From the NCBI GenBank assembly GCA_036172245.1, contig JAYWIR010000023.1, positions 248,001-312,000 on the forward strand: 64,000 bases of DNA, in the 5' to 3' direction. Within the stretch, counting starts at the first letter, position 1; each line of letters begins with the position of its first letter. Below the pieces are notes generated by a model that worked only from the letters and a program-made list of their open reading frames with translations, searched no databases and had not been told where the DNA came from. The translations under genes and the position numbers were made by a program. This document shows, piece by piece, positions 363 to 64,000 of the stretch. The stretch is from Raillietiella orientalis. Lineage: Eukaryota.

Positions 363-1502
<1,140 letters not shown>

Positions 1503-5500: not shown

Positions 5501-6219
5501 AGATGAGGCCAGCTGCTGTGTCCTCCCTGTCTCTTCTCCCCTTCCCCGTCTGACCTCCGGGACTCCCAGAAGTTGCGAGGCTGCTCAGGGCTGGAGGAGG
5601 GAGGGCTAATGCCCGGAGTCCACTTCCCAGCAGGGGGTGCATGCACTTTCGCGCGCGGATGCCGAGCGGCAACGCGTTCCAGGCGCGGCGCGCGTCCCCA
5701 CCTGCCGGGAACCTCCGCGGCTGCGTACCGGCGGCGGTTCGGGCCGGAAGTGACATGCCCCGAGAAGACGCTAGTCCGCGCCGCTCCTTGTAGTCGGCGC
5801 TCTGGCACGGGGTCACTCTGCGACGCAGCCTGTCAGCCGACGCTACTTCTGCGCCTTAGGAATAGGTGGCTTCCGGTCCACCTGAAGCCTGTCCATGGGG
5901 TCAGGCAAACGTCCACGAGCAGCGCTCTTCGGCAGCTTCCTCGCCCTTCGGCTGAGCACTCTCTTGGTGCGTCCACCAGTCCGGGAAGAGAAGGGCGAGG
6001 CTGCAGCGGATGGCGGAACTAGGTCTCCCTCGCACTTCTCCGTCGGCCAGAAGGCTGGCCGGCGGCAGCGGCGAGAGTAGCCGTAGGGGCAGGGGGGCGG
6101 GAATCCGTCCGCGCCGCGCCTCCCAGAAGGTCTTACACCCGTGTTGCAGCTGCTGAAAGCACGACGACAACGCGGCGGTCCCCCGCGCGGGAAGCCGGAG
6201 GAGGAAGGGGGTCGCTGTC

Positions 6220-7856
6220 ATGGAAACCACCGTCCCCGAGAGGCAAGGCAACCTGACTGCGGAGGAGTTCTTCGAGGACTTCCAAGTGCTCGCCCATGGC
6301 GCCCAGATGGCCTTCATCACCGCCTATTCCCTCATCATGGCGGTGGGAATGCTTGCCAACTCCTACGTTCTCTACGTGATCCTCGCCCACGCGGCCCTAC
6401 GGACTCCTGGCAACCTTTACATCGCCTCCCTGATGGTCTCCGACCTCCTGGTGTGCACATTCTGCATTCCCTTCACCCTGGTCATCCTGCTGCAGCCCAC
6501 CTGGACTCTGGGGGTCGTCCCGTGCAAGCTGCTGCCCTTCGTGCAGGTAGGAAACACCCTACTCTGACCCTGGGGAGGTGGGTCCAAGAGTCTCCATCCT
6601 CATCCCCTTGCTTGTGGGGACGAGCAGATACGCGCGCAGCCGGAGGGACCTCTCCCCAAAGGTGGCACATCTAAAGGGCCGGCAGACGAAGAACCGTAGC
6701 TCCCGCGGTCGCGAAGGAGCGTCAGCTCGCGGCGCTGTAGAGTGTGCGCGGAGGGCACTCGACAGCGCCCGGAAGGCAGCCGCGCCGTCTCCAAGTCCAG
6801 CCGCATGCAGGACTGGAATCTTCCTGGAATCCGCCTTCGGGCGGTGCCACCTTAGCTTGCCGGGGCGGGAGGGAGGAGCGTTGCTGGGAACGGGCGCCCC
6901 CTGCTGTGTGGGTGTTCTCGGAGCCCTGCGTACGGCTCAGGCGACGACCAGGAACGGAAAGGAATGGGAAGAGGGGGAGATCTCGAGATGGCCATACGGA
7001 CGGATGCTCTCCCCCCTACCCCCCATTAGCAGATCGTCTTGAAGCCCACTCCTCCACCGGTGTCCGCCTTAGCTGCTTAGACCCGATCCCCTCCTCCTCC
7101 CCTCTCTCCCAGCGCTGACATGAGGGCGGCTCCCTGCTTAAGTCGCAGCGCTCACTATTGCAGGGGACATCGATCGTCGTGTCCACGGCCACGGTGCTGG
7201 CCATAGGCCTAGACCGCTACCAGTGCGTGGCGAGGATGCACATGGGCGGTCCGCCGGTGGGCTCCAGGAGGCCGTTGCTAAATGTGGCGCTCCTGTGGAC
7301 CGCGTCGTCGCTGCCAGTGGCTCCCTTCCTGGTGTACCAGGACGTACGAACCTTCTCCCTTCCCGGCCGGGCCGGCATCCACTACCAGATGTGCGTGGAA
7401 GGCTGGCCCCAACGATACATGAAGGACCTCTACACGCTCTTCTTCATCACCGTCCAGCTAGTGGCACCTGCGGTCGTCCTGTGGACCATCAGCGCGCGCT
7501 TCAAGCGGTTCCTGGACCGACACCTGCGGAGCGGCTTCCCGGACAGGGTGGTGGGCAAGGAGCGGCGGAGGAACAGCAAGGTCATGGGCATGCTGGCCGC
7601 CGTGACGGTCGTCTTCGCGGCCAGCTGGCTGCCTTACCACGTGGACGCGCTGCTGGAGAGCTTCCACCCGGCGCTGTTCCGCGACCAGAGGCAGGTCTAC
7701 CTCATCTTCGGGATCTGCCACGCCGTGGCCATGACATCTGTGGTCAGCAACCCCGTGATGTACGCCCTGCTCAACTCCAACCTGAGCAGATACCTGCGCA
7801 GCAGGAACGTCCGCCCTCTGGCAAGCCAGCTAAAGAGGATCGCCGTTCCGACATGA
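6220..7856 (+). CDS. Rhodopsin-class neuropeptide GPCR, NPY/NPF-receptor-like, 339 aa; exons 6220-6546 and 7164-7856
   Basis: Phase-0 GT-AG intron 6547-7163 joins FVQ|GTSIVVST. Motifs: GMLAN (TM1), NLYIASLMVSDLL (TM2), WTLGVVPCK, DRY, CVEGWP (ECL2), FAASWLP (TM6), CHAVAMTSVVSNPVMY (TM7). Confidence 0.92.
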
Positions 7857-25300: not shown

Positions 25301-28300
25301 AAGAGGGTCCGAGGGTGATTTTAACACCAGGCAGTGGTAGCCCTTCGATCCAAAATGCAGCTCTCAAAGCGATCGCCATCAGCATTCGAGAAGGCCCCCT
25401 ACTGTCCAAGAAGCAGTAACAGTCTCATTAGGGCTATGGTCTCTTGCAACGAGAGCAGTCATCCCTTCCGCGTCCCTGTGCGCTTGAGAGGAGTCTCCGA
25501 AAGTCTAACTGTGCAAGAGCTCCTTGTCTAAGAGCGCGATGGTCGTTGCTTGGAGGTACAGTAACTTCGAGGATGTCCCTCACTCCTACGAAAGAAAAAT
25601 CGGCAGAGTCGCTCGCAGATTTCGTTTCAGTAGGCAAGACTCGAAGTGAGGAGATGCACGAGCACCATACCTACCTGAAAACAGTATCAGGAGATTATGG
25701 AGTTTTCCGGAATGGAGCAGAGAACACTCGGGACCATCCGGAGGAAGGCACGAATCTGCAGTAGAAAATGCCTCCCCGAGCGTGTTGAAGTCCGGAGGGA
25801 CAGCTCCGTTGGAGTGAAAGTCACGAGTTGTCCCTCAGCAGGCAAAACAACCTCCGTGCACCCTCCGTCTCCAAGCAAGCGACCCATCGATGCAGATTGA
25901 ACAAACGCCTTCTCGGGAGCCGAGTGAGCGTCGCAGTCGATGCAAGTCACCAATGGTGAGATGGCAGACCTCATCACCATGAGGAAATGGAGGTTGGTTT
26001 CCGCATGGTCTCAATGGCTGATGGAAAAGGAAAAAAATAGAAAGAAAATGAGCCCAGGAGCAGAGAAGGTACCAACGAAACTATGACAATCAAAAAAAAG
26101 AAAGAAGAAGGTTGATAGAAAGCAAGAAATTCTCATTAAGGATGCAGTACGCATTAAAGAATCCTCAAATTTAAAGGAAATAACCCGAGCTAAGCGCCGG
26201 AACCCGTCCTTCCATTTATGTAGTTGATTGCTGATTGGTAGAAAATTTGTATTTTCTTTTCCCTCTGAAGTGGTTTTGTACTCCTGGACGAGCTCACCAA
26301 ACGTGCGTAAAACTCTGACAGAAGGGCAGGGAAAATTCGAACTTTGTCATTAGCTCCCGTTTAATGCACGAAGCAGTCAGGAAAATGAACTGACCGCATT
26401 TGGCAGAGTTTCGTGGCCAATTTTTCTGAACCTGAACTTTGTAATTAATGACTAGGACAAAACTCCGTCTTCTCCCCAATTGTATCTCCACCCCACTCGA
26501 TCTCTACATCCTTCATCTTTCAAATGTCATTCTCACTCCATTATTTATTATACTCGCTCCAAGGGAAAAAGTTGCAGCATTGTAACTCCCTCATCCCAAT
26601 CCTTACTAAGAGCTCTCAGAAAAAAAAAGGCCACATTGAGATTTTTTAGCTAAAGGACAAATTATACTAAGGGTCTTCTGAGCTATCCGCGTGTCAATCT
26701 CGTTTAAAGCGAGATTAACGCACAGATAAATAATTACAAAAATTACGATGAATAAACGAACGGCCATGATCTTGACGGACAAAATAAATCAAATAAATTA
26801 TAAATACATACGTAAGGAGGGAAACAAGGAATAATCTGGAAACAAATAAATTATATGCACATTTTTGCATGCAAATTAATAACGAAAAAAAAAAAATGTC
26901 CAAAGTAACAACGAAACAAAAACAAAAAGAATCTTTCTGAAACAAGGAATTATTTGCATGAGGTTAAATAATTTCATGAGAGCGTTTTGGTTACATCCTC
27001 CTCAGGTCCTTCAAGTTCCTCACATGCCGTTTATGTTTTGAGTATTCACGTATCTCATACGTAGTTTCGGGATAGACTTGGGAACGTTCTAGGAAAACTG
27101 GATAATCTTGGACTTCATTGAACGCACCTGGCACACCCTATGTGCAGGAAATGGAAACGCACGTCCTGTGAGCTCGTGTGAGGTTATTGCCGAGCAGCAA
27201 GCAAATGGCTGACTTTTACTCAAAAGTACCAAAATATGAAAATCGGTTGCCGTGTACTCCTTTCGAAATGTCGGGCGCGTTTTTTTTTTTCATCTTCCTT
27301 TGCCTATATCAAAAGCCAACTAAATAGTTAATCGAAGTCGTGCTTTGGACCGCAAGCTGTTGCCTCCTAACCGAGAAGCTCATTTAAAATTCATATCACC
27401 CCCAATTTTTCTCAGCCTATTTTTGCTCCGATGCACGCTGCCTGCTTTTTCCGAGAGTGAGCACGGCATGCTGAAAGTCGGAGGAAAAATTCAAAAATTT
27501 CTTTCCTTTTTTTTTTTTTTCTTTTTTCCTTCCTCCGTCGAGATTAAAAAGTTTGATGAAGAGAGCAGTGGGAGGGGGTGGGGAGGAGGGAAGAGTCCTG
27601 GATCTGTATTGCAGAAATCACTTGTTAATCGAATCAGAAATCCGTTTCTGGAAAAGGGAAAGAAGTAATGGAATTACGATGCAAGTTTGAAAATTATGAA
27701 GGATGAGAACAGGAAAAAGAAAAAAAAATTGTACGTGCAATCATGACAAATGCGTGCCAGATTGGATCACATGGACACGCCGTTCCAGCGCCGTGCAATG
27801 TGGAATCCAACCGCACGCGCTGGAAGGAGAGTGCTCGAAAGACCGAGAAGATCATTTCTCTGTTGAAGAAGAAGAATTTTTTTTCTCTGTTTCCTTTTTC
27901 TGATTACGGCACGAGCGTGGGCCCCCGCGAGCTCCGCCGTTTTCGTAATAGAGTTTTGTTTTGAAGTACCGCTGAGATTCAAATGAGCGAAACGGAGCTC
28001 TGCGGAGAGTTTCGAAGGGGCGAGGCGGCGGTTGACGGAGTTTCGTTGGGGTTTTTCGCGGAGCCGCTGAAATTCCTGCAGCCGGAAAGTGAAATGGTCC
28101 AGTCGAAGATCTTCTCACCCGTGCTGCGTTGCAGTTTCGCGTGAATCCTTCCGTGTGTGCTGCAAGGCCCTTCTTACCACTCCCTGCTCAGACCAGTGTC
28201 GCACGATAGATCGAGTTTTAGGGTATGGATGATAACAAGCAACTAATAAACCCGATTCTCATACAGTTTGTGTGCTCATTTCTAATTTCAAGTGGCTGAC

Positions 28301-28966
28301 AAATGAATTTGTTGGTTATGCATTGTGACAGACTCATGCTCTGCAAGTGCTGGGTTAGTAATCGTAATTCTGATAAAACTGAAGCCCAAAAGACCAAGTT
28401 GATTTGACTACTTTATATTGCCTTGGGAACATTCGACCGTCACGTGTATTAATCATGAATCCCGTCAGAAATTAATATAATCAAATACGACAACAGTAGG
28501 ATCTGTTGATGATAGAAAGTAGCTGATTGTCCTATAATCGTTTTCTTTAAAATTATTATCGCATGCACTGCATTCTTTTCTAGGGAAGTGCACCACAATT
28601 TTAACCCAAACCTGTGAATGCAATTGCATAATGATTAGCATCCTAGATTTAGATCCACTTGCAGAGTTCAAGTATTCACCACATGGTGATGTTTTTCATA
28701 CTATTGGTGTATGCAGTGCAAGTTACAAGCCTGTGAACTGTTGATGTAGTCCTGCTGTTATATTTCAGGTATGTGGTGGTTAGGACTGGTGTCTTGCAAG
28801 GATTTTTTTTTTTCAATTTAGGCACATTGTATACCTCTGGCATTACAGTTCAAATGTTCATTTATCGAGTAAATTTGTGTGAAACAACTGCCATATTTCT
28901 TACTCATTTTCAATTTGACCACTTTCGGTATATTTACTAGTGGCTTACTTTTGTTTCCTTGCAGAA

Positions 28967-31900
28967 ATGGACCATATCCAGTCTCAGAATATACAGGTTT
29001 TTGTGCGTGCCAGGTAAGGAGAGTAAATAATTTTGCATGAAACATGTTTATTTAGTCCATTAAATGATCACGAGAAAGAACAGCGAGCCTGGAAGGTTAT
29101 CAAAATTCCTACTCACAAAGAGGTTGTTCTTCAGACCAAACCAGGAGAAAAACCAAAAACCTTTACTTTTGACTGGGTATTTAGTGACAATGCAAAGCAG
29201 GTATGTCTTGCAATTTGTCAGGATGTAATGTGTACTTTATTTTAGTTAGATGTTTATGAAAAAGTTGCACAACCACTTTTAAAGGAAGTTTTATCAGGAT
29301 ACAATTGTACTTTGTTTGCCTTTGGCCAAACTGGGACTGGAAAGACGTTCACTATGAAAGGTGAACAAGGAAGTGATCGTGACAACTGGGGAGATGCTTC
29401 TTTGAGTGGAATCATTCCCAGAACCATAAATGATCTTTTTGATGAAGTTTCTGCCCAGGGAATGCGGTCTACAGTGAATGTTTCCTTTGTGGAACTTTAC
29501 AATGAAGAACTGTTTGATCTGCTGGGAATCACTAAGGACCCATGCAAACTGTGTCTCTTTAAAGATGTAAACCATCATGGTTCAGTCATTATTCATGGAT
29601 TAGAAGAGGTGACTGTGCACAGCAAGAATGAGGCTTATCAGATTTTCAAGAAAGGATTAAAGAGAAGACACACAGCTTGCACTTTGCTCAATACTCATGC
29701 AAGTCAATCACATGCTGTGTTTGGAGTGACTGTGTATACAAAAGAATACTTTCAAGAAGGAGAGGAACTCCTGAGGACTGGAAAGTTTAATTTAGTGGAT
29801 TTGGCTGGCAGTGGAAACATAGGTCACTTAGGTGCTTTGGGTCATCAAGCTAGGGAAGCTGGTACCATCAATCAAAGTTTGCTTACCTTATGTAGGGTCA
29901 TTCAAGCCTTGGCAGAACCTACTTCTCACGTGCCTTATCGAGAATCCAAATTAACACGCCTGTTACAAGACTCACTGGGGGGGAAAACTCGGACATCGAT
30001 TATTGCAACGATTTCTTCAGCATCTGTAAACCTAAAGGAAACTTTATGTACTTTGGAATACACCCAGTACGCTAGGAAGATCATCAACAAACCAGAAGCC
30101 AATCAGAAACTTACTAAAATGACCATTCTGAAGACATATGTGGAACGAATTGCCTTTCTGCATCGGGACTTGATTGCAACAAAGGAAAAAAGCGGGATTG
30201 TACTGGATAAGGACAATTATACACAGTTGTGTGCTCAGCTGGAGGAGCAGGAGCAGAAAATTGCCGATGCACTAAGCAGCATGCAGGCTCTGCGAAAGGA
30301 AATGATGAAAATTGAGGTAGGTTTTTCTGAGGTTGCGTACTTATCACCTGTAGAGTTACAGCGTATTTTCTCTGAACTTGGTAAGACCCATGAGTTCACA
30401 AAGCAAAAGTTACAGCACACTAATGAAGAACTGGAATCTATGCAGCTAACTTTAGTGTCAACAGATAAGCAGTTGCAGTTAGCAAAATTGCAGCAACAGT
30501 TGTGTGAATGTCAGGTGGCTCACCATCTGCTTGCAGAGGATACTTTAAAACAGCAGGCCAAACAACTGCTGGACATTACCCAACTTAGTATGGCAGACTT
30601 GTGTGTCCTGCATAGGAATTTACATCAGAGAGCAACTCTAGATTACACCAATGGACAGCATCATAAGCTCTGCAAAACCAATATCTCATTCATTTGTGAT
30701 AACCTGACCAATGAACTGAAGGAATTTTTTGGTAATCAGAAGATACAACAAACGCTCCGTGAGAACTTGTATGGTGTGTACTGCCATGTATTGAATTGCG
30801 TCATTGTATAGACATCTTAGGCCAACTAAAAAAGCTGCAACAGGGACATGTAGTTTCTCACGGTGGAACTATATTCAGTTCGGTTGCTACAAAAGACTTG
30901 GAAGTAGTTATACCTCTTCTGCAGGATTGCTGTGATTCTGAGAAGCGAATTATTAGAAATGTGAATGATTACACCCATCAGCAATGGAGGATGCTGCAAT
31001 GCTGGAAAAAGCGCATCTACCTCCATCAAATGAAAGGCATCAACCAGATGCTCGTCAACCTAATTAGCCTACTTGACAGAACCAGCATTTTGTCCGCACA
31101 AATGAACCTGCAGACAAGCAGGAAACAGCAGCACCTTCAGGAGTGGCTGGAGCAATGCACAAAAAGCTGCGAGAAACGGAAAAAGGAATTCTGCTTACAG
31201 TGTACCACTGTCATGACCCATATTGAGCAAGCACATCGTGGACTGGAAGACACTTTTGCCACAGTACATCAGGAGTTCAAGGTGAGGAATGAATTCATGT
31301 TTTTTGTCTTCACTGCAATTTTCTAGGAAGAAAGTGAAACTCCAAAAGACTTGAGAAACACTGTGAACATAATGGATCAGCAGCAGAAAGAAATCAGTTC
31401 TAGAAAGCAGGAAACACATGCTTTTCTCTCTTTACACAAGCAGCTGCAAGATGTCTTGCAGAAGCTGCATGCATCTCAGGAACAGATTCAAATTAGCTCT
31501 TCTAGCACTTTGGAGCAGTACAACCTGCAGACTAAACAGTTTGCAACTGCTGTGAGGAGTATCATGCAAAAAAATTCAAGAAGCATCGTAAAAACAGTCA
31601 CTCATGTAGCTGACAAGGTACACTCTGGTCAGCAATGTCTGCGTGTCCAATTTGTTAACAGAAGGCAGGAACAACTGAGTGCTAGTACCGAGCATTTGTT
31701 ACAGGCATTGGAAAGAGAGCAACAATTTCTGACAAATAATGCCATGCAGTCACTGAAAAAGACAGATGTGGATGTACAAGGAGGTGTCATGGCCAGAAAA
31801 CAGGCAGCTGATGAGATTCAGTCTGCTTTCACAAAGAATTGGAATTATGTGCATGCTTTGCGACAAAACAAGTGCGTGGATCACCACGTGGAAGTGATAC

Positions 31901-32298
31901 TTCAAAGCTTGCAAAATATGAAAGATGAAGTGCGCTTTCATTATCAAGACCGTCTGCAAGTTTACAAGCCAACTGGGTTGACGCCACCAACAAGAGAATG
32001 GAAATTGGCAGCCGAATCTCCCCAGAGGTACATTTTGCGACATCTTCAATGCCAACGGTTTGCACAAAGCGATGTTGCATATCCCTCGTGGCGAAGTGGT
32101 GAAGGTCGATTTCACGAATCCTCAGGAACATCCGAAGTTCTAAAGGATGAAGAAAAGGAAAACGACATTCGAAGCGTCCAGACTCCCATTATTCACAAGC
32201 GACAACGATCCCACGGTAAACTTCGATCCCTGCATCAAAAAGAGCTCGTCGCAAGCCGTAGGATAGAACCAACCCGGCTGCTACGTCCCATGAACTGA
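28967..32298 (+). CDS. KIF11: Kinesin-5 (BimC/Eg5/Klp61F family), about 1038 aa, with substituted switch I/II residues; exons 28967-29013, 29056-29200, 29246-30316, 30362-30773, 30812-31281, 31327-32298
   Basis: NIQVFVR, KTFTFD, P-loop GQTGTGKT, ELYNEELFDLL, HVPYRESKLTRLLQDSLGG, neck NKPEANQK, coiled-coil stalk and BimC box YKPTGLTPPTRE. All introns are GT-AG (38-45 nt) and the exon sum of 3117 nt is in frame. Confidence 0.93.
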
Positions 32299-32899
32299 AG
32301 TCACTTCAGACGTTGATTCGTGAACTGGGATGCTGACAATATTGCCCAGTTCCCACGATTGCTTATAATGTAAGGTGTTCTGATTACTGAGCCAATTTAG
32401 TGGGCCAAAGTGAGTTCCTTCGAAGGATAAGCGAGGCGCGGGTTGTGATGTGGTTTTCTTGTCACCTTACTATGCCTTTCACCACCTTCGCGGATGTGAG
32501 CTTTCCATGCCAAAGGTGCCCAAAATGTTGAACTCCAATTCGACCAATGCGACTATATAGGGAATCCTGTAATGAGGGCCTGCGTTGCATCGCCCCTTCT
32601 GTTTCCTCAAAATAAAATCCCCCGTCTCTTCGTGTTAGGAGTTGGCGTGAAAGTTGTTTTTTACTATCCAGCCAACAGTTCATAGCTTTTGCCTGCCTCG
32701 AGTGCCGTATGTCAATCCACAGAATTGGGTGACAGAGCTGTAATAGAAAATGTTTCTTATCAGATACCCAGCCAAGGGGCAGGACAGGTCATCTAGCATG
32801 TGTATTTCTTGCCTCGGGTAGGTGTTGGTTGTTAAATGCTCACGTGATTCGCATTCCCAACGCCTGCCGTGAAGCATTTCTACCAATGTTCGCGATTTT

Positions 32900-35800
32900 T
32901 TAAGGAATATCGTAAAAAAGTATTCATTGGGTGATTTAACTGTTGCATCTTTCCATCCCTCGAGAACGTGGATGTTGGCCAATTTTCGTGCCAGAATCAA
33001 AACGCAGGTGTCAAGTACATCAGACGGAAGATGAAAAAAGCAGCCTGAGAGTTGTGGGGATCTTTCGGGCTCGGATGGATGCAACCCATCCGTTTGCGGA
33101 GAAGCCGTCTTTTCAAACCTTAGTCTTTCTAAATACATGAGTTTGAGCGTAATGATCAGAAATGTGATTTCTTTTCAAGGCCGTTTGGCCGTTTATCACT
33201 GCATATGAAATTAGCTTCCCCCGGGCCGGCCCTCATCTGTCTGTTAGTGTATTACGTGTGCCAAGTTATGCATATTGAAAGTATGTGAAATTAAATCCGA
33301 TCGGCGGAGGGATGATGTAATGTAAAGATTTCATTTTTCAAGAGCAGACGGTACGTAATGGGGTAGGCAGAGTCATCTTCAGCTTCCCTGCCGCAATTCT
33401 CAATGGTCCCGTCCGTCGTGAGATGGGGAAAGTACGACGTACTTCATAGACGGCTGTTGCAGGGCGGAGAGTTCCCGATGGTGGATGACATTCTCTCAAG
33501 GAGGTGCACCGTGCAAATTGTTCTATCGAAGTGGCAGCATGAAATATACATAAGATGAACCACGGGGCGAAAGGATGAGCAAATTGGACGAGCACGTGGG
33601 CTGGATGGATTCGCTGCATCGTTAATACCCGTTGCTATGCTGTTCGCGACACAATCACAGATTTTAGTCACTCACTTTTAGTCATTTGCACAAGTTCGGT
33701 ACTCTGGTATGACAAGAACATAAGGCAAAAGGGTAATTCGTTTGCGAAGCAGCTAAAGGTCAGCCATTCGGGAAGCTCCAACAAGACACGCGCCAGATGT
33801 GTGGTAGGGTTGCCTGCAAGTCACAGCGTCGTTACATTTTGGCTTTGCTCCGGCCTTGACTGTCTTCGTACTCTTCGTCTAACCTGAACCTTGCAGATGC
33901 TCTGATGACAAACACTTACTTAGGATTCTTAGCCTGCTGGCCATCGAAGAAACGGCCCACCGAGGCACGGCAGCGGCCACCCAAAGCACACCTTTGCTTC
34001 CCCCCTTTTTAGGAATTCAAAACAATCTGTGAGGGCATTGTGGAAAATGGTAGTGCTTGATTACAGAGGACGTTTGCACGATCAGGACCATTCTTCGTGA
34101 TGTGGTGATGCTGCTTCCGAGATGGCAAAAAGCTTTCTAACTTCCTTCGAGGTCAAGCGATGCTGGAGAGCGACAAGCGCAATACGCAACACGTTCTAGG
34201 TTTTGATCTTTTCATTGAATATCTACTCATAAGGACAGCATGTATGCACTGCTTATATGCATAAAGTGTGAATACATCGAAAGAATGAAAATTTCGATCG
34301 CAATTTTCGTCGAAGTAACTTCTTGTGAGCTCGTGTCATCAACACAGTGTATACAACTTACGTTCGCGTGTGCATGCAATGCGTAAGCGTGTGAGGGCAG
34401 CCTTCCTGGTTTGCAGGGAGATCTAAATTGGTCGATCCCATCGTGTCATGTTCCCCACATTACTGTTTTTTTTTTCTTCTTCTTCTTCTTCTTTCTGAGG
34501 ACAGTTTCAAGAACACGTTCACAAATCCAGTTTCAAATATTTCCAGGATCGTGATTCCGCTTCCCAGTATAGAATCACATACCTCCTGAGGATAATGACA
34601 CCAACTTTCAACTAAAAGCACGACTAACATTCTGAGCCACGTAAAGAATTTTTAGCATGCAGCTACTAATGATCACTACATCAAGCAATTTCTGGCGAGA
34701 TCGGGGTCACGGGAAGAACGGAAGCCAAAAGTGGTGACAGTGTGTTACCGAAATCGAATGCTTCCCTGCTTTAGCGTCAATAATTCCTAGAAAACCAAGG
34801 AAACCAAGCCACTTGGAAGCAACTGCAGTTACTTAGCAACTCTCATCCTGAATCATTATTGGCTGGGTTCTATCTGAAACATGAAGGCAGTGAAGGATTC
34901 AGGAACCTTGTCAACCCACACAAACTCAGTGGCTGGATGCCCGAAGGCCAACCACGAAAGAGAAAAACAGTGAAAACCAGTGAGGCACATTGACTACCGC
35001 ATGCATGTATGAATGAAAGTATAAAACAAATTCACCCCACCCCTCCTGGTACTTGGGGAGAATCGCGAACTCGGTGTCCCTTTCAAGAGCAATGTACGCA
35101 TTCCATCAAACATCATTGGACCGAATTTTCGTTACCGAAAGCGTTTCCGGGTTTCAAAGAAGCACAGCGGCTTCCAATGCATTGCTACAGACAATGGTCG
35201 CCTGCACCATCGCAGGAACAACACGACCTATTGGCGGCTGGAGGACTTGCGAGCTGGCAGACGCCGCCACGCCTCGCCACATCCCGAAGGGACTCCTTCG
35301 GTGGAGTGAGCATTTGAGTGTGCCTCCCGAAGAACTTGTGATCCCTCCCTCCTGTTTGAACACTTCTGTGTTCCCCCTTTCGTGGAAGCAGGACGTCATC
35401 ATGCTGGTGCATTGGGGTTTTCACTCCAACCAGCGGACGAACCGTGTTTCCGGGGGAGTTGTCTCCCCGAACTGTAAACGGTGCGGGGAAGTGGAAACGC
35501 TCCCCCATCTGCTCTTGGACTGCGGTGCCCTCCTAGGACTGTGGCGGAGGCTGGCCTCAGCTCTCCTGCTGCAGGGGGACACCGCAAGAGACTTGATGCG
35601 CCGCTTCTTCACGCCAGTCGGCCTGTCCTTAGGTGCGGTGGTCGCAACGGTCTGTTGCACCCGCGCCATCGACAAGGCCCACCGAGAGCTGGAGAAGCTG
35701 GCGATTTGTCGACAGGCCACCGGAATAGCCGTCGAGAACATGACTTCGGCTGCCGAGTGGGCCCATCTTCCAGAGGGCGTTAGGAGCGAGATCTCCGGCA

Positions 35801-35925
35801 TCCACCGCCGGTTCTGAAGGAAAGGAACGGCCAGCCTCCGCCGCAGTCCCGTCGGGGATCCCTCCCTTCGTTTTTTTCTGTGTCCTTTGTCCGGGAACTC
35901 TGTTCCTGGATGGTTTAGTAATAAA
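32900..35925 (+). mobile_element. L1/Tx1-like element (fossil E): decayed endonuclease/RT with an open C-terminal zinc-finger segment at 35053-35817
   Basis: LGD(F)NC with a 1-nt deletion at 32927-32943, ILRDVV..QKAF (~34090-34140), FPTLLF (~34455), then an open frame LGRIANSVSLSRAMY...SPNCKRCGEVETLPHLLLDCGALLGLW (CCHC zf-RVT type). AATAAA at 35920-35925. Confidence 0.75.
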
Positions 35926-39400: not shown

Positions 39401-39750
39401 AGCTCTGGGGGGGGCAAAAGAATGCTGCAAAGTAAACTATCTGGAAAATACCGACCCTATTCAGTGTTGCCAATGCCATTCGGCAACGCCAACATCCCTT
39501 TTGTGAGTACGCTTCCGAATCAGCTTCCCATCGTCTGGCTTCAACTAAATAGAGTAGGCAATGTACCACCAATAAATATCCTATCACGTCTATACGAAAC
39601 AGAGCCAGCGCTTTCCACAGGAGCTACTAATAATACATACTAAAAGGCCTGTCTAACAAAAGCAAGCATCACGTACATTCGATTGTATTAACCGAACTCA
39701 TGAGGGAGGAGAGGTGAGACAGGGATAATCAACCAATCCCGTGGGTCCAG
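36500..39750 (-). mobile_element. Decayed L1/Tx1-like element (fossil F), tail-to-tail with E
   Basis: Minus-strand order: AFN (~39370), AGNH (~39070), STQSVISVYTAKMGNL (~38350), SGDKHLST (~37940), DKVRSKV (~37590), HLFLIEVW (~37460), SSPMCRW (~36580). Confidence 0.45.
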
Positions 39751-41183
39751 ACGCAGCAGCATTGCAACTGGTGCTTGTTGAAGCTGCGACGCCAAGCATG
39801 TGTGTGTGGGTGTGTTCATGAAAAAGAGTGGGCGAAAAATTTTCTAGCAGTGAGTTTATTCATTCAGCCTCTGTTCGTCCTTACTTGGTTGACACGAAGT
39901 GAGCATTCAACAGCCTTCACAGCTGCGTTTTTCGTTTGTGTCTTGTCGAATGCGCCTATCCTTTTCCCACCTTCGGACATGCTGCAGAATTTCGTGCAGA
40001 ATGGCAGCATCTCAAAGAGTCTCTCGCAACTTGCCACCGTTTCCTCAACGGGGGGACTTTACGAGTGGCTTTTTATGTCCACACCTTTCATATCGAGACT
40101 CATTTTAGTCTTCTTAGCCAACCTGGTGGCCATTATTTTTTTCTTCCTCTTCACACCAGTTATCCTCGTGGAGATGGCAAAAACTGTTTTCCAATGGTAG
40201 TTTAAAGGAACTCCACTGAATTCACTTCCGCTGAAGCTCATCTGAAGTGGCATTCTTATTAAATCTGCCAACTGCAGGTTGCTACATCTTCCAAAAAGCA
40301 TGTCAGTTCTAAATCTGTAACTATGCACCATTGGAGAAAGCTGCTGCGGCTGACTTTCGAGAAGCAGAACGCAGGCTGGCCCCATGGATTAAGTAAGTGA
40401 CGTCAGATTTTGCCGCGGAACTGACATTTTCTCATTCTTCTAAAGAATGAGTGGCCTCATCATCTCATAAGAATGCACTGGTTGTTAGTTATCTTCACGT
40501 TATCTTCATCATGTTGGATATTTTATGCGAGATCTTCCTACATGCACTTGGATATATTGGGTGAAGTAGAAAAATTAAAGCAGTACTTCTCCTAGTATTA
40601 TTATTATTATGAATTCTGCTTCAAGCCCTCCGGATCAGTCCACGCTTCAGTGTGTTGGAAGTATCAAATCACGTCATTAAACTTCTGACCACTCCTTGTA
40701 GGATTTGTACACAATCCCTTGGCATTCATTCTTAAAAATCAAGTTTCATATAGATCAAGATTTATGTATGCCTCGATCCAGTTTGGTTCGTGAAAGGTTA
40801 GAAATCGGAAATATTTTTTTCCGTATTACTGTCGTATAGCATGTCTGACCATTTTCCCATTAATATGCTCTGCTGATATGTCATATGCTCACACGTCCTT
40901 GGAATAAGATGGTGCATTTCAAACTCAATTATGAAAAGAACATTCTTAATGGAATCCAAGACTGCCAAAGCTGCAAGTGCACCATTGGCATGCTGCTTCT
41001 TAAATCACACATCCAAGGTCCATCTGACCGTCGAATTGAGAAGACCACATGACTTTGAACCCAGATAAAAGGCACAAACTATCAGCATGACTGGTGGACA
41101 ACATGACTCCATGTTTATTCCACGTCTCGGGCATGTGGTCAAGTCTCACTCTTCCATCACCGTTCACGCGACTTGTTCCCGTC

Positions 41184-46456: not shown

Positions 46457-49400
46457 TCAGCGCTCGCCTTCTTCCGGTGAGGAAGAGGGAAGGACCACCA
46501 TAAGTTTCTGCAGGAATCTTGTGGTAGCCTCTGGAAAAGAGACACGGCTACTACCGTCTGTACGGCGCGCAAAGACGGAGGGAGACACGGCGCGCGTACT
46601 CACGTGAGAAGGATGTGAAGCACGCCGGCTTATTCTTCCAGCGGAGAAACACTAAGTAGACGGGGATGCCGGACAGCACCAGCAGGATGCCGATCCCTGC
46701 AAGAAGATGATGCGTAGGCGCAGTGGCGAGAGTCCCCGTCCTTGTTTTCCCAATTCTCCCCCTCCTCCCAGGCAGAGCTTCCTCTTCCGGAAAGGGCATC
46801 GCCGTGCGGGACCGCGCCGCTTCCCGCTGGAGCAGGAAAAGGGCGGAGACCGAAACAACAGCGGACGAATGAGTCCTCCCACCACCCTCCCTTCTTCTCT
46901 GGGGGGAGGACGTTCCCGCGGTAGCCGCAAAGAGGAGCCGCGCAATGTCGTGGCTTCCTCCGAAAGCGCGGCAGTAACGCTCTTCAGAGATGAGCTAGTC
47001 GGCAAAGGTAAAGGGTGAAGGGGGCAAGAGGGAAGGAAGAAGCGAAACGCCTGGGGTGTCCGTTGCATTGGCTTCCCCCTTCCCGCACCGGATCGGCAGC
47101 GCGGAACGCTCCCCATCGCAGCGAACAGGCGTCCGTACAGCCCCTCCCCTCCTATAAAATCTGAGGCAACGCCCGGTTACCCGTCTCCACAGGACTGGCA
47201 ATGACCGGAACCACAGTGATGTACAGCGTTGCGAGGATGTAGAAGAATGGAAACAACAGGTTCACCCGGATGGGACGTTTCCATTCCGGCTGCTTCCAGC
47301 GCAGCCAAGGCAAGCAGAGAACACCCATGCCGATGGCCAGCCAGTTGACGAAGCTGACGTAGTTAATGAGTGCGACAATGTCCGAGGAGGTCAGATAGAT
47401 CAGCGACAGAAGCCCCTGGCGAGGGGTGGGTCAAATTCCCGCTTTGCCCCACCCCAATCTGTGCTCACCATCAGGAGCACCGCCGGAGCCGGGGTAATCC
47501 TATTGATCTGGATCATGGTCAACACGACAGGAAGCTGACCTTCTCGAGCTCCCGCGTAAAATAACCTGCAATGACGTCACAGGAGGAAGAAAGGTGGATG
47601 GGGAGCGGCGCTCGGACCCTTCCAAGGTCACTCGCGCCGCATTGGTTACCTGGAAGACGTCAGTAGGATGCCGTTTACAGCACCGAAGGTTGACATGGCG
47701 ACGAAGATGGGGATGATGATACTCATGTACCCGTACAGACGGTCCGAAAACGTCTGGAATGACGCCCCGAGGGAGAAGAGGCGCTTTAGTGACCCCAAGG
47801 CGCCCACTCTCCCTCCGTGCTCACCACTGCCACGGCCTCCGACCCCAGCATCTCCGCCGGGCTGAGGGTTGTGAAGAAGGCGACATTGGTCAGGACGTAG
47901 ACGCACGTAACCAGGGCGCACGAGATGTAGATCGCCCGGGGCAGGTCTCTTGGGTGTCCGGCAGCCGCGTTGTGGAACCTCTCCCTCCCTCCATAACTCA
48001 CCTGACCGGATTCTTCATCTCCTCGATGATAAAATTGAGGTAATTCCTGGAAGAGGGAGCCCTTGAAGCGGAAGAACCGGCAGAGAGCTCGCGCCAAGCC
48101 TGCGGGCGGCGGTGCGTCTTCCTCCGCAGCGAACGGCGCGCCTGCGACTACCTCGCACTCTCTCATTCCCCCTATCCCTAAGACCCCCCCTCCTTACCCA
48201 CCCCTTACACTGCATTCTGACCCCATCCGCACCTGCCCCATGCGACTGCCTTCCTCACCGCTTCCTCGACCCCCCACTCACCATCCGTTGTACGCGAACA
48301 ACCCTGAGTAGAAGGACAGAGAGATCTTCCGGAAGTCCGTCTCGGAGTTGTCGAACGTGAAGTACTGGAACTGACCTGAGGGCGGGGGAAGAAGAAGAGG
48401 GTGAGAGCCCCTCCTAGTTGTGCGAGTGTGTGAGGGGTGGTGATGAGGTGAGAATCGGACGGGCGCTTCTGGATCCTCCTTCCGGGAGGCGAACTGCTTC
48501 TCCCCTTTGCCCCGAACGGGGAAGCATGGGGAGAGGAACTTCCGCCACTTTCCTGAAGAGGTGCCTCAAGAGCGGGAGGGGAGCGACCCTTCCGAATGCA
48601 GAAGGGTAGCTGCTCAATCGGCATTCCGGATGCAACGCGGCGAGACTTCTGCCAGGAAGAATGCAGCCGCCCGGTTCACTCTGGCTGCGATCACCGTGAA
48701 CAAGGTGACCCGACAGAGGCACCCCGAAAGAATCTGGCGCGGGACGGCTCCGACCTCCGCAGCCCGCGCCCAAGGCCGGATCCGCCCGTCGAGCGAGCGA
48801 GGAGGGGCGGATTCCTCCGCCCCCTAGGCAGGGAGGCGCGGACCTTGACCTCTCGCCCGGCGCGGACACGGCGTGTACCCCCGCGCCGCCACCCCCTGAA
48901 GACCAAACAATGCGCGAGCTGCATCGATCCGCGTCGGGATCGACGCCCCCGCTACAGAAGCAGATGCTCGGGCGGAAAAACTGCCCTCGCCCCGTAGGCG
49001 CCCGGCGGTGATGACCGGGAAAGGGGAGGAGCAAGAGCGGCAGACTCCTGGCCCGGAGGAGACGGAGGGGAGAGAAGGGGGAGGAGGTGCGAACACACCA
49101 GCAAGGAAGCCGCGTGGAGGGGAGAAGATCGCCTGAAGGGAGGCACGGAACGAGGTCGGGCAGGGCCTTCGTGGCCATCGACGACTTCCGTGGCCTGGGA
49201 ACCGAGCAACACTTGCTGACTGCCTTCCTGACTGCCTTCTCTGCCAACTCCTGGCGGCGGGGTCGGGAAAGCGGGAGGGGAAGGACGGGAAGCCTCGGAG
49301 GAGAGAGGGAGAACGTGGAGAACACGCCGCCGCGGCAGTCTAGCGTCCCCATGCCAACCGCGCGCGCCGCATCCCTCTTCCGGGCTGCGACTTTTAGCGC

Positions 49401-51735
49401 GAGCGGCAGCGGCGCTTCCGTGGGAACCGGAGAAGGTGACGTAAGTGCGCGCGAGCTTCTCCCCGTCGGCAAGCTTGGCAGGGGGTAGGGAGAGCTAATG
49501 TCACCGGCAGCACGCGCGGCCGGACTTGGGCCGGCACCCCCGAGAGGAGGGGGCGATCTTCCTGCCTGAGACGGCCTCCCCCCAGGCACGATGCCGGGTG
49601 GGCGGCAGGAGGTGAGGGCGCTCGGGCCGAAGGTTTGCTGAGGCGGGAGAGACGCGAGAGAGAGCCTGGGGTGCGTTCCAGGCGCCACCTCCCAAAGCAT
49701 GGGGCAGGGGGTGGGAAATACGCGAAGGAACCAGCGTTTCCGTGGCACCCAGACGAGACCTGGACGGGGCACGCCGATGGTGGTCACCAGCATCACCAGC
49801 GGGACTCACTGGAAAGCAATGCGTTCGCGAACAGCCTACGGCGCGCTTTGTGGGCTAGAACAGGTGCCGCAGGTCGTGTCGTCCTGCCAGGGCCGGGGCG
49901 GGCGATGTGGGGAGGGGCCGCAGGACGCGTCGGCAGGAAGTATGATGGTAAGGGTGAGGAGTGGAAGAGGTCACGCACCCCCAGGCGGTGGCCGCCCGCC
50001 GGACGTACCTTTGGCCAGCTGCACCACTCCCGTGATGATGATGATGACCAGCGCCAGCAGCTTGGCGTACGTGAAGACGTCCTGCACTCGAGTCGCCCAC
50101 TTGACCTTCCAGCAGTTAATGAAGGTAAGAATGGCTACGGAGAAGAAAAGTTATGCAGTTCGCCTTCTCCCCTGTTTCCTTCCTGCATGGATAGGGGCGC
50201 GGGTGGGCGGGCGTGGGGCGAGGACCCGGAATCACGGTGGCGTGACATCCTCGGAGACATCGTCTGGAGGTCGCGCGCGCCGGGGAAGGAAGCGGCGCAC
50301 AGGCGCGGCTTCGAGGGAGCAGTTCGCCCGCGCTTTGGAGCTGGCCGGGTACCGATCGATAGGCTCCTCTGGAAAGGCCTTCTCCCTGTGCCACCGGACT
50401 CCCGCGCGCGCTTCCCCCCTTGCTCGAGCGCGGCCTCGACCGCCTGGGACCCGCCACTCCCGCCTCGGGAAGGGAGGGAGGGACGGATGTCCCCTGAAAA
50501 GACGACGCCCGAGGGAGAGCGCCTGCCACCCTAGCGAGGCCGCCTCCGGGAAGTCGGCCCCTCGTGGGTCCTCTGGGATGGTGGAGACACCCCGGAGCTT
50601 TTTGCGCCACCGGCGCGAGGCGTCGCGCGCATCTCCGCCCCGCGAGAGGGCGTCGTCGTCACCTGCGGTGCGCTTCCGAGCACGGCGGTGCGCCGCCGGG
50701 ATTCGATTGCCCGCGCACGGGTGTCCTCCGGGGGGGCGCCGAAGTGGCTGGGGGACGGACGCGCGCTTCCAACGTTCCCTGCCCGGGCGAGATTCCTCGG
50801 GGCACGAAAGGAAATCGCGTCGCGGAACTGGCGGCTGCCGCCGCTCCGGAAGGAGCCCCGGGGAAGACACGCGCGCTCTCCCGTCGCGGAATGCGTGCGG
50901 TCAGATAGAGATAGCCGGAGGCGGCCTCCCACGATGGAGGAGGAGGAGGGGCGGACGGCAGGAGTGCGTTCATGCCGAACAGGGCGTGGGCCGCCGCCTC
51001 GGGACAGCACGTTGCGGGCTCGCACGCGAGGGGGGGGGATCCAAGCACCAGGGGCCCTCCAACAACGGCTGCGCGCCTCCTCCCTCTCTGGGGGACCACC
51101 GCCCCCTCCCTTCCCCACTCACCTATGCAGCACGCCGCCAGCAGGCGCTGGGCCTGCTCTGGGGACTCGCAGGTGGAGAATAGGGGCCGCAGAGCGTAGA
51201 CGCTGAAGGTGAGGGCCACGATGGCCTGGGAGCAGGGCCTGACGATGAGGCACTCGACCCAGAGGCGCATGAAGGCCAGGAACGGGCCGAAGGCGGTCAT
51301 GATGTAGGCGTAGTCAGCCCCGGAGCGGGTGATCATGCAGCCCAGCTCTGCGTAGCAGTAAGCGCCCACAGCGGAGAATAGGCCACTGGCCACCCACACG
51401 ATCAGTGCCAGGTTGACGGAGCCCGAATATCGGAGCACCCCCGAGGGGCTAATGAAGATGCCACTTCCTACGATGCTGCCCACGATAACAGATATGCCGT
51501 TTAGGAGGCTCATCTTGGCCTCCAGGCGCACGGTGGTCCCGGGGGCGCCCCGGGAGGAGGAGGTGGAAGAGGAGGAGGAACCGCCCTTGAGTCGGGAGCC
51601 CTCGTGGACTCCTCCTCCTCCCCCTTCTTCCCCGTCCTTGTCGTCCTCCTCCCGGCGCCGGGGTGGCCGCCGGCCTTCGTCTCCCGGAGCGACAGTCCTG
51701 ATGCTCCGCAGCTCGCAGCCGTTGTCCAGAGTCAT
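46457..51735 (-). CDS. SLC7 L-type amino-acid transporter light chain (LAT1/LAT2-like, resembling arthropod sobremesa/CG1607), 534 aa; exons 51735-51123, 50134-50009, 48375-48282, 48046-48002, 47948-47825, 47753-47650, 47565-47469, 47415-47181, 46696-46604, 46530-46457
   Basis: [27 protein letters not shown], heavy-chain-linking Cys in [41 protein letters not shown]. All junctions are GT-AG with consistent phases; total 1605 nt. Confidence 0.93.
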
Positions 51736-61630: not shown

Positions 61631-64000
61631 GTAGGTTTTTCATTATATGGGTGTTTGCTTATGTGGATTCTTTTTTTTTCTTTCTTTCTTCTTTCCGACT
61701 TGATGTTGTTTTACGTTGTGCAGACTCGCTGCCAGGCGTGAATTCGAAATCTGATGTATGTAATGTATTTCGTAAGATCAACTTAACGTGTAAGGAAAAC
61801 ATTGAGTACAAGCATGCTGTGTGTTTTTTTTGTTTCCGCTTAGGGTCCTTTGTTTTTTCGATTTTTATCCGTGCTTCGGGGTTTTCTGCCTTCCCGTGTG
61901 CAAAATTCCACGGGAAAAAGCTTCGATTGATTGATTCGATTTTTGACACTCACCTAGGGGAAAGTGCTCGCCACAGGAGTAATTTTTTTGAAAAAAAATT
62001 GGAGGTGCGGTTCTTTGTGTGTGTTTCTTCCAGGTGGTGAAATCTGGGAGCGTAACTTTTTTTTATACTAGCTTTTTTGTGAGCATTTCCGTATCAGGTT
62101 TCCAACTTTTTGGTCTTATCGAATTAAGTGACAGTTGTGGTTAAGTAGGAACGGTTTTCTCAAGGTGCAGCTTTGGTTTGGCAAACTCCTGCTTTCCTGC
62201 CTTTTAATTGAAATGCTTTTTAATTACTTTGAATGTTTTTCAATATTTAAATATTGTTTTGTGTAGCTCCCAACAGTGTGAGATGCTTGGCAATTACTAT
62301 GCTGCTGATTCAAATGCATTAGGTTTTTATTTCGAAAACAGCCAAATGCTGAGCCAAGGCCTACCCTTTTTTCTTTGTAATATGCATTTTGATTCGAGGA
62401 TGTTTTTAAAAGCACCGTATTTGAGATTTCTCGAATTTCTTGAGGATTCAGTAACAGGCATGGACCACAAAGCCAGTTGACTTCTTGTAGGCCAAGACTT
62501 AAACAAATCCTGATGAAATTGTTCATATACAGTTCATTGGTGTGAATATGCGGGGTATGAATATCAGTTGCATAGTAAGTGAAAGTACTCAGTAAAAGTT
62601 TCAGAAGACATGTACAAATCCCTCAAATTGAGCAGTAATGTTCTTATTACCATGATTCAAACTTAACATCTTGTATGGAATGTGTGCCCTGTTTTGCACA
62701 TCCAAATTATTATAATGAACTTAATAAAAGTTCCATTATCTTTATCACAAAGAAGGAATTCCTAAGCATAATCTAGAATGTCAGGTGGAATGTGTACTTG
62801 CAATGTTTGTAGCACAGAACAAAAGTGTAGAAGATAAGAAAAACTGTGGTTATTAGGCAAAGTCAACAACTTTAAATAATCTCGATAGTCTTGCAATATA
62901 TTCTACTAGGAATTCCATATTACTGTATTCAAAATTTGTTTTTGATGGGTAAAGAAGCAAGTAATCAGAGTTCTTCCTTGTGAGTCAAAATGTTCTCAGT
63001 TGTTAAAAGTAAGAACTTTAGCACAGTGGTTCTCAAATGTAACAAGAATCTTCAGCAGAGGATCTGAATTTGCATAATGTCAAAATTATAACAAGGTTAT
63101 TGATTGCAAAATATCACCCTGATTTTTCTTTTTGGATATAGCTTTTGATTAATTAGTGTGGAAAGCAACTGGTTTCTCTTAGGCATGTATGGAATCCCAA
63201 ACTAAAGTGCATAGGATGGAAATCATTGTATTACAATGAAGAGTTATTAAAATTTCCATTTCCTGATTTGTGTTTTGAGAAATTTAAATGTCCAAAGTGT
63301 TGGCTTGTAGTCATTGTTGTGCATACTGAAGTCTATCTGCATTGTGAATGTTTATGAAATAAATATTGAATTATAGCATATACTATCTAAAACGTGGCAT
63401 GTGTTTTGCGGGAAATAAACAACTGGCTATATTTGTAAGTTGTTTGTTTTATTTTATCAAATCCATATAGTAATGCAAAACTTCAGTTTCTCAGTGTGGT
63501 GCATTGAATCCCCTGAATTGGTCTGAAAATTGGGACACAGTTGTTAACATTTTAATTTATACGAGAAAAGTCTCTAACAGATTTTAATCTAGGAATATTT
63601 TGGAAACTGAACAGCATAAGACATAAAAAAAAAAAAGAGAGTAATTGCTGTTTTTTTTTTAATCTCTGTGGTTCAGTGTTTACTTCTGTCAAAATTGTCA
63701 CTTGATGAGTTTAGTTTTGATAATTTACTAAGCAAGGTACATAATTAAAATAAATATTTCTTTAAAGAAATGCATAAAAGTTTTCCAAGATTGTTGAGGG
63801 GAATGGAGAGGAAATTCTATCAAAAAAAAAAGAAAGAAACTTAATATGAAGTATTGGTTGTTTTGAATTAATTTAATCATCTAAGTATTGATTTCAATAA
63901 TAACTTTCCCAGTAAGTTCGATGCAGTTACATCTATTAGCAGCAATACAAAAATAGGAGGCAAAGGAGTAAGCAGAAGCAGTAAAAACTAAATATAATAA

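Follow-up and report, generated by a model that had tools for sequence, protein, structure and literature searches.

Textbooks present kinesin-5 as the sliding motor of the mitotic spindle, and it also serves as a drug target; whether cross-linking or braking of microtubules without motility is biologically sufficient has so far been studied only through engineered or drug-selected mutants. A 64,000-nucleotide stretch of the Raillietiella orientalis genome (contig JAYWIR010000023.1, positions 248,001 to 312,000; hereafter the window, whose own coordinates are used throughout) raises the question of whether a natural genome can keep a kinesin-5 that no longer hydrolyses ATP. The gene concerned lies at window positions 28967-32298 on the + strand and presents an open frame of 1038 codons once five tiny GT-AG introns (38-45 nt) are removed. 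The motor motifs on which the question turns are the following:

29690-29713, + strand: switch I, NTHASQSH (family consensus NxxSSRSH), with S232A and R234Q; CAA (Gln) at 29705-29707
29798-29836, + strand: switch II and loop 11, DLAGSGNIGHLGA (D-L-A-G-S-G-N-I-G-H-L-G-A), with E270G, R274H and S275L; GGA (Gly) at 29813-29815
29324-29347, + strand: P-loop GQTGTGKT, intact, with 8 of 8 residues equal to the family majority
29927-29983, + strand: HVPYRESKLTRLLQDSLGG microtubule-binding element, intact, with 19 of 19 residues equal to common family residues

We consider it probable, at roughly 55%, that this is a real and intact gene derived from a kinesin-5, the product of which would be hydrolysis-dead, kept by selection, and would bind, cross-link or brake microtubules.

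The residues are numbered here according to primate KIF11 (P0072). In the phmmer alignment with human KIF11 structures (E-value, E, 6e-109), the two switch motifs stand opposite aySSRSH and DLAGSENIGRSGA, and the sequence, its translation and the CAA and GGA codons agree on both deviations. We collected 240 kinesin-5 relatives with the motor exon (120 of 626-2000 aa and 120 of 196-625 aa), 234 of which entered the motor alignment; the remaining six had no P-loop match or were shorter than 330 aa after trimming. The switch II Glu270 was kept in all 234 aligned relatives and Ser232 in 233 out of 233, both being retained even by the longest branches. Arg234 was present in 232 out of 234. One of the two deviants, P0190, diverges completely at that point, a probable gene-model error, while the other, P0239 (SSCSH), is a songbird KIF11 that carries the source label LOW QUALITY PROTEIN and has a long branch (0.51) in the tree described below; P0239 could be an error or a second degenerate copy. 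A further relative, P0183, has Arg234 and misses Ser232 and Ser233 at an alignment gap. At the second Arg of the RxRP motif, 188 of the 197 filled rows carried Arg and the window protein carries Ser. When the protein was examined for the signatures of a competent motor, the P-loop pattern GxxxxGK(S/T) was present, but neither NxxSSRSH in switch I nor DxxGxE in switch II, where DLAGSG is found. Single mutants of kinesin-1 and Kar3 at the equivalent residues are deficient in hydrolysis. In kinesin-5, R234 of switch I and E270 of switch II form an inter-switch salt bridge that is probably needed for competence in hydrolysis (PMC3820509), and the KIF11 numbering of the lost residues matches this pair, as the initial annotation of the locus had proposed. 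That annotation had also read both switch codons correctly, while the catalytic damage proved wider than it had stated, since Ser232 and the RxRP Arg are lost in addition to R234 and E270.

Its claim that the P-loop and HVPYRESKLTRLLQDSLGG are intact was borne out at every residue. The P-loop GQTGTGKT is the majority form, found in 227 of the 234 relatives, and we take HVPYRESKLTRLLQDSLGG to be loop 12 / helix 5. The motor retains the latch residues Tyr164 and Glu284 as well as Ser233, His236 and Gly268, most residues of helix 4 are the usual ones of the family, and loop 5 has a length similar to that of canonical kinesin-5. Beyond the motor, the stalk contains two Pro in 555 residues and its heptad periodicity reached a z of 4.5 against shuffles, compared with 4.0-11.4 for five canonical stalks; the region equivalent to the bipolar assembly domain is about 21% identical to that of the cockroach Periplaneta, and an intron interrupts the tetramerisation region. 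A remnant of the BimC box, which had initially been described as intact, follows in the tail:

31969-31998, + strand: BimC box remnant PTGLTPPTRE, with the Thr-Pro kept and the downstream YPR deleted, from an alignment with 19 canonical tails

The PTGLTP core was thus confirmed, but a deletion of four residues has taken out the YPR, and the tail domain PF13931 went undetected; protein-atlas leads to PF13931 clusters scored only 0.77 and 0.75. In canonical kinesin-5 the BimC-box site is the Cdk1 site needed for spindle localisation (reviews, PMC8232732). The last ~100 codons of the gene (32000-32298, + strand) are CpG-rich, lying outside the CpG-depleted block described below, with 11 CGN (8 of them CGA) versus 2 AGR Arg codons. 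They have no similarity to canonical tails, and the gene's C-terminal end may not share the history of its other parts.

The reading frame itself was delimited by a tblastn comparison with Periplaneta Klp61F, the best full-length relative, in which 560 aa aligned collinearly at 47% identity (E 5e-148) and a weak collinear match of 21% over 458 aa (E 2e-9) followed in the tail region. Since both matches are interrupted by short stop-carrying inserts, we interpreted these inserts as introns, of 42, 45, 45, 38 and 45 nt. All five start with G/GT, have a purine at +3 and a G at +5, and end with YAG; retention of intron 1, 2, 4 or 5 would introduce a premature stop. The frame of about 1038 codons with intact splice sites, as first annotated, was therefore reproduced. 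The probable gene model, including an intron in the 5′ untranslated region (5′UTR), is as follows (o/e, observed/expected ratio):

27900-28224, + strand: putative non-coding first exon and promoter-proximal CpG-rich stretch, CpG o/e 1.26, GC 0.55; GT donor at 28225 after AGG; limits uncertain
28225-28964, + strand: putative 5′UTR intron of 740 nt by sequence reading, ending ...tttccttgcag just before the start codon; CpG o/e 0.45 (0.25 in 28501-29000)
28967-29013, + strand: coding exon 1, ATG then MDHIQSQNIQVFVRA; the spliced RxRP motif reads R-A-S-P
29014-29055, + strand: intron 1, 42 nt, cag/GTAAGG...TTTAG/t; stop at codon 17 if retained; removal restores collinearity with Periplaneta Klp61F
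29056-29200, + strand: coding exon 2
29201-29245, + strand: intron 2, 45 nt, cag/GTATGT...TTTAG/t; stop at codon 79 if retained
29246-30316, + strand: coding exon 3, 357 codons, from the motor core (before the P-loop) to the neck and first coiled coil; Pfam PF00225 E 8e-89, human KIF11 structures E 6e-109
30317-30361, + strand: intron 3, 45 nt, gag/GTAGGT...TTACAG/c; in frame and stop-free, with other AGs at 30353 and 30355; removal gives 1038 aa
30362-30773, + strand: coding exon 4 (stalk)
30774-30811, + strand: intron 4, 38 nt, atg/GTGTGT...TATAG/a; removal needed for the frame, stop at codon 571 if retained
30812-31281, + strand: coding exon 5 (stalk)
31282-31326, + strand: intron 5, 45 nt, aag/GTGAGG...TCTAG/g; stop at codon 730 if retained
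31327-32298, + strand: last coding exon, 323 codons and TGA, distal stalk and strongly diverged tail
32611-32616, + strand: AATAAA, candidate polyadenylation signal

Because intron 3 is in frame and has no stop, its splicing is not needed for an open frame; read-through would put 15 more residues, one of them a Pro, into the coiled coil. The other introns read in the window measure 71 nt (in an SLC7 gene, ~47754-47824), ~550 nt (in a G protein-coupled receptor (GPCR) gene), ~740 nt (the kinesin 5′UTR) or several kb, and the tiny introns of the kinesin gene may be normal for this genome or specific to the gene, gained for example after an RNA-mediated or partially processed duplication. A processed retrogene was ruled against by the five coding introns and the probable 5′UTR intron, with no poly(A) tract after the AATAAA and no flanking direct repeats beyond chance, although an old retro-origin with later intron gain may apply.

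Both the similarity of its motor domain and its general architecture place the gene in the kinesin-5 family. Exon 3 alone yielded a kinesin motor domain (Pfam PF00225, E 8.2e-89, profile positions 57-327), and the phmmer search of this exon (29246-30316) against solved structures gave 6e-109 for KIF11, 3e-97 for Klp61F and 1e-75 for Cut7, compared with 3e-61 for KIF3B and ~1e-53 for kinesin-1; with 60% identity to solved Eg5 structures, the domain is certain to be predicted as a kinesin fold. Generic labels aside, the named matches among the 2 x 120 relatives were all kinesins, mostly KIF11, Klp61F and KRP-130, with some KLP2, 'Kinesin-like protein' and 'kinesin motor domain-containing'. The protein has 1038 aa versus 985-1130 for most relatives; the best identity to its motor exon was 60-62% in both relative sets, and the window's own protein was absent from the collection. 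In order to place the gene, a quick maximum-likelihood tree was built from 45 rows, comprising the window protein and 44 of the 240 relatives, chosen for taxonomic spread. The free tree located it inside the pancrustacean set with a support of 97 (Shimodaira-Hasegawa-like approximate likelihood ratio test, SH-aLRT), but the pancrustacean label was dropped, as a tree forcing the gene together with five vertebrates was no worse (log-likelihood 1.8 higher, approximately unbiased test p 0.54). Diagnostic columns gave 16 arthropod versus 4 vertebrate states and 12 non-bilaterian versus 4 vertebrate states; judging from these residues, it can be said only that the gene is not of crown-vertebrate type and is without the derived crown-vertebrate states. 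Most arthropods have one kinesin-5, and Tribolium has four (PMC2674883).

The gene has diverged strongly, its terminal branch measuring 1.53 versus a median of 0.21 in the 45-row tree (~7x). A set of 157 motor columns with a conservation of at least 97% was defined from the 120 full-length relatives. Of these columns, the window protein keeps 134 and deviates at 23, the median of the relatives being 1. This number equals that of the most divergent relative (the top relatives deviate at 23, 20, 19, 18, 16 and 15 columns), and that relative, the spider mite (18), the nematode (16) and Drosophila (15) all keep the catalytic residues. The changes are distributed unevenly, identity to the family consensus being 0.25 in variable columns, 0.53 in intermediate ones and 0.85 in those that are highly conserved. 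The same gradient was found in Tetranychus P0236 (0.24, 0.43 and 0.88) and in the nematode Syphacia P0224 (0.23, 0.51 and 0.90), both of which keep the two catalytic residues. In a simulation of neutral substitution without insertions or deletions, ~238 substitutions were required to change 23 of the 157 codons, and the open frame was kept in 0 out of 1000 runs. The marks of a pseudogene (a disrupted frame, lost splice sites or a neutral pattern of change) were not found, there being no stop in the 1038 spliced codons, consensus splice ends, a conservation gradient and no neutral run that kept the frame. Altogether, the open frame, the gradient, the simulation, the stalk and the BimC core speak for selection having still maintained the protein while most of its divergence, and the catalytic loss at least in part, built up. 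The initial annotation had left two alternatives standing: either selection maintains a non-catalytic protein, or the gene is a young duplicate or an incipient pseudogene. The former is favoured by the open frame, the simulation and the site gradient. The latter is disfavoured, because the branch is long, none of the relatives is closer than 62% identity and the tail found no homologue in the search of 1.84 billion representatives.

The base composition of the locus bears on its past activity:

28560-31860, no strand assigned: CpG-depleted block, CpG o/e 0.23-0.44, TG+CA excess 1.3-1.7; flanks ~1.0

Specifically, CpG o/e is 1.0-1.2 upstream of ~28.5 kb and ~1.0 again beyond ~31.86 kb, and GpC is normal inside the block. 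Since the depletion spans the non-coding 5′ intron and ends ~440 nt before the stop codon, it is neither a coding effect nor matched to the gene borders. In the rest of the window, CpG o/e is mostly 0.7-1.1, including regions of 60-69% GC, with the exception of 62-64 kb (CpG o/e 0.29, GC 0.32), where Pfam found no family in the two open reading frames (ORFs) tested at 62208-62622. The pattern of the window looks like that of a mosaically methylated invertebrate-type genome. Gene-body methylation in invertebrates marks genes transcribed in the germ line, and the CpG depletion points to long-term germline methylation and transcription of the locus. The GC content at third codon positions (GC3) is 0.38-0.42 in the kinesin gene versus 0.83-0.87 in neighbouring genes, and we attribute this low GC to CpG depletion through methylation. 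About half of the surviving CpGs of the motor region belong to Arg CGN codons, including those of two Arg of HVPYRESKLTRLLQDSLGG, CGA (29939) and CGC (29957). R234 and R281 are now encoded as CAA, one CpG transition from CGA, which is the path they presumably took. CpG mutation pressure thus appears to have been resisted at the microtubule-binding Arg and not at the catalytic Arg.

This mutational pressure also lends itself to a different account, in which a fast-evolving, formerly active extra kinesin-5 recently became unconstrained, CpG decay removed its catalytic Arg codons and the frame is still open for lack of time. R234Q, R274H and R281Q are of the CpG-transition type in a strongly CpG-depleted gene, 23 of 157 near-invariant positions have changed, the tail is unrecognisable, and the collection holds no homologue above 62% identity and no identical protein. 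We nevertheless regard a decaying duplicate as unlikely, if worth taking seriously. At this many conserved-codon changes none of the 1000 neutral runs kept the frame; moreover, conservation follows the family gradient, all five tiny introns have consensus ends, the stalk has acquired no more than its two Pro in 555 residues, and the microtubule-binding element still contains CGA Arg codons, which a single transition would turn into TGA. At least three independent changes in two catalytic motifs would also be improbable within a very short neutral period. Another account holds that the protein is still an active motor, or a slow ATPase, in which other residues compensate for the missing salt bridge and Ser. 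The retention of the P-loop, Ser233, His236, Gly268, Tyr164 and Glu284 is in line with it, as is an overall divergence on a par with the most divergent relatives, in which both catalytic residues are present. However, the universal presence of Glu270 (234/234) and Ser232 (233/233), longest branches included, and the hydrolysis deficiency of the equivalent kinesin-1 and Kar3 single mutants make residual activity very improbable. The salt bridge is, besides, probably needed for competence in hydrolysis (PMC3820509). We give still less credit to an artefact, whether a base-calling or assembly error at two codons or foreign or chimeric DNA. The sharp shift in GC (0.40 versus 0.60-0.69) and CpG content around the gene could suggest one, but the composition changes at ~28.56 and ~31.86 kb, inside the transcription unit and not at its borders, as expected for methylation in place, and no repeat or duplication marks an insertion. 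The two odd codons, in turn, are two among many changes across the gene (23 at conserved columns), which isolated errors do not explain.

Several observations nonetheless weigh against a selected, hydrolysis-dead kinesin-5. The 23 changed near-invariant motor positions include G296C, V303A and P307S, presumably in helix 4 and loop 12, and microtubule binding may therefore be altered as well. The stalk's heptad periodicity falls near the lower limit of canonical values, and the BimC box carries the four-residue deletion that removes the usual YPR. Most full-length relatives carry PF13931, which Pfam did not detect here even at E<=10, and the 323-aa tail, compared by phmmer with 1.84 billion representatives, yielded 0 matches. 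No orthologue was found when the motor exon was compared with longer and similar-length proteins and the tail with those same representatives. The gene model assumes efficient splicing of introns that, at 38-45 nt, are shorter than the 71-nt SLC7 intron. Finally, the CpG signature is one of past methylation, not of present transcription, and relaxed constraint would fit the CpG-decay-type changes R234Q, R274H and R281Q equally well.

On the reading that we favour, a selected non-catalytic kinesin-5, the protein would still bind nucleotide and microtubules. The salt bridge between switch I and switch II would not form and the attacking water would not be activated, so that ATP would not be hydrolysed, and the protein would remain tightly bound to microtubules without stepping. 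Its long helical stalk would let it assemble into dimers or tetramers, either by itself or, should the genome also encode a canonical kinesin-5, together with that motor. Such assemblies would statically cross-link or brake spindle microtubules, the probable setting being the germ line or the early embryo, and the surviving BimC Thr-Pro would still permit Cdk1-type control of spindle binding. A variant of this idea is that the gene is the sole kinesin-5 of the organism, kept purely as a hydrolysis-dead cross-linker or brake, with bipolar spindles built by other motors; it would correspond in nature to the kinesin-12-dependent pathway that cultured cells with rigor Eg5 display. This variant seems quite doubtful to us, and an extra copy is more likely than a sole kinesin-5 because the long branch is gene-specific and the gene structure unusual.

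In the literature searched, whose coverage leaves out most subscription journals, we found no described case of a natural hydrolysis-dead kinesin-5. If the gene does encode a selected non-catalytic protein, it would constitute a ready-made natural separation-of-function allele. It would show the parts needed for static cross-linking, namely the P-loop, helix 4, loop 12, helix 5, the stalk and the BimC Thr-Pro, all of which are kept, and it would show that change is tolerated in the switch residues and in most of the tail. Kinesin-5 would then join the kinesin families known to have yielded pseudo-motors. A dying duplicate would instead be ordinary, and the case rests on one sequence.

Other genes lie elsewhere in the window. 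A polyubiquitin gene at 584-1502 (+ strand) consists of four head-to-tail 228-nt ubiquitin repeats that are 91% identical in DNA, and ends ...LRGGF. The two-exon rhodopsin-type GPCR gene, at 6157-6567 and 7119-7856 (+ strand), gave Pfam 7tm_1 matches (E 9e-14 and 4.5e-23) and has a GC3 of 0.83-0.87; no relative of it came up at E<=0.001 in a word-based protein search, and the protein-atlas clusters closest to it represent several animal phyla. The SLC7 gene (~47155-51510, - strand) encodes an amino-acid transporter of the LAT / y+LAT type, with exons in very GC-rich DNA. Its first transmembrane exon is about equally similar to human LAT1, y+LAT1, y+LAT2 and LAT2 (E ~2e-32 to 1e-30), which would be expected of a lineage that had no part in the vertebrate gene duplications. 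A 266-codon open frame at 35017-35817 (+ strand) has a Cys/His-rich C-terminal stretch and presumably resembles the end of the ORF2 proteins of retrotransposons without long terminal repeats, although Pfam gave no match, and a weak retroviral-envelope-like match at 39718-40197 (TLV_coat, E 0.006) remained below the cut-off. Pfam searches of 66 and 138 further window ORFs named nothing beyond the SLC7 exons, and the window yielded 0 Rfam matches and 0 tRNAs.

Compared with canonical kinesin-5 (human Eg5/KIF11, Drosophila Klp61F and the BimC family), the window protein shares the N-terminal motor, a stalk of ~550 residues and a PTGxTP tail motif in the expected place. In contrast, it has neither the switch I Ser and Arg, the switch II Glu nor the RxRP Arg, its PF13931 domain is undetected, its branch is ~7x the median and its gene has only five tiny coding introns. 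The nearest functional parallel is Eg5-G268V, a spontaneous switch II 'rigor' mutant of human Eg5 that is immotile, stays on microtubules in ATP and bundles them, acting as a static cross-linker also in mixed tetramers (PMC5084272). It is likewise a kinesin-5 with a defective switch II, and by analogy its behaviour would be that predicted for the window protein. However, Eg5-G268V is described in that source as a single somatic mutation, drug-selected in cultured cells and toxic when overexpressed (PMC5084272). The window protein keeps Gly268 and has lost S232, R234 and E270; it is encoded by a germline gene with a long independent history, and its behaviour is predicted from its residues. Vik1 and Cik1, the partners of the kinesin-14 Kar3, lack any nucleotide-binding site, whereas the P-loop of the window protein is intact. 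They resemble it in that a kinesin-fold domain binds microtubules without ATP hydrolysis and works with an active motor (PMC4338441, PMC10281266). They differ in belonging to another family, in being fungal and in not being recognisable as kinesins by sequence alone. KIF7/Costal2 and KIF26/VAB-8 are members of kinesin-4 and kinesin-11, with other tails and functions, and form old conserved subfamilies with orthologues in many species. Similarly, these are kinesins repurposed as static microtubule binders or scaffolds (PMC12919046). The window gene, in comparison, has no known orthologue. C. elegans BMK-1 is a kinesin-5 that keeps its catalytic motifs. It works as a brake or cross-linker (PMC4472013, PMC10775986; review PMC8232732), which indicates that a kinesin-5 can be useful by cross-linking or braking microtubules, with no outward sliding. 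Lastly, the Tribolium copies set a precedent in that one animal lineage carries additional kinesin-5 genes (PMC2674883).

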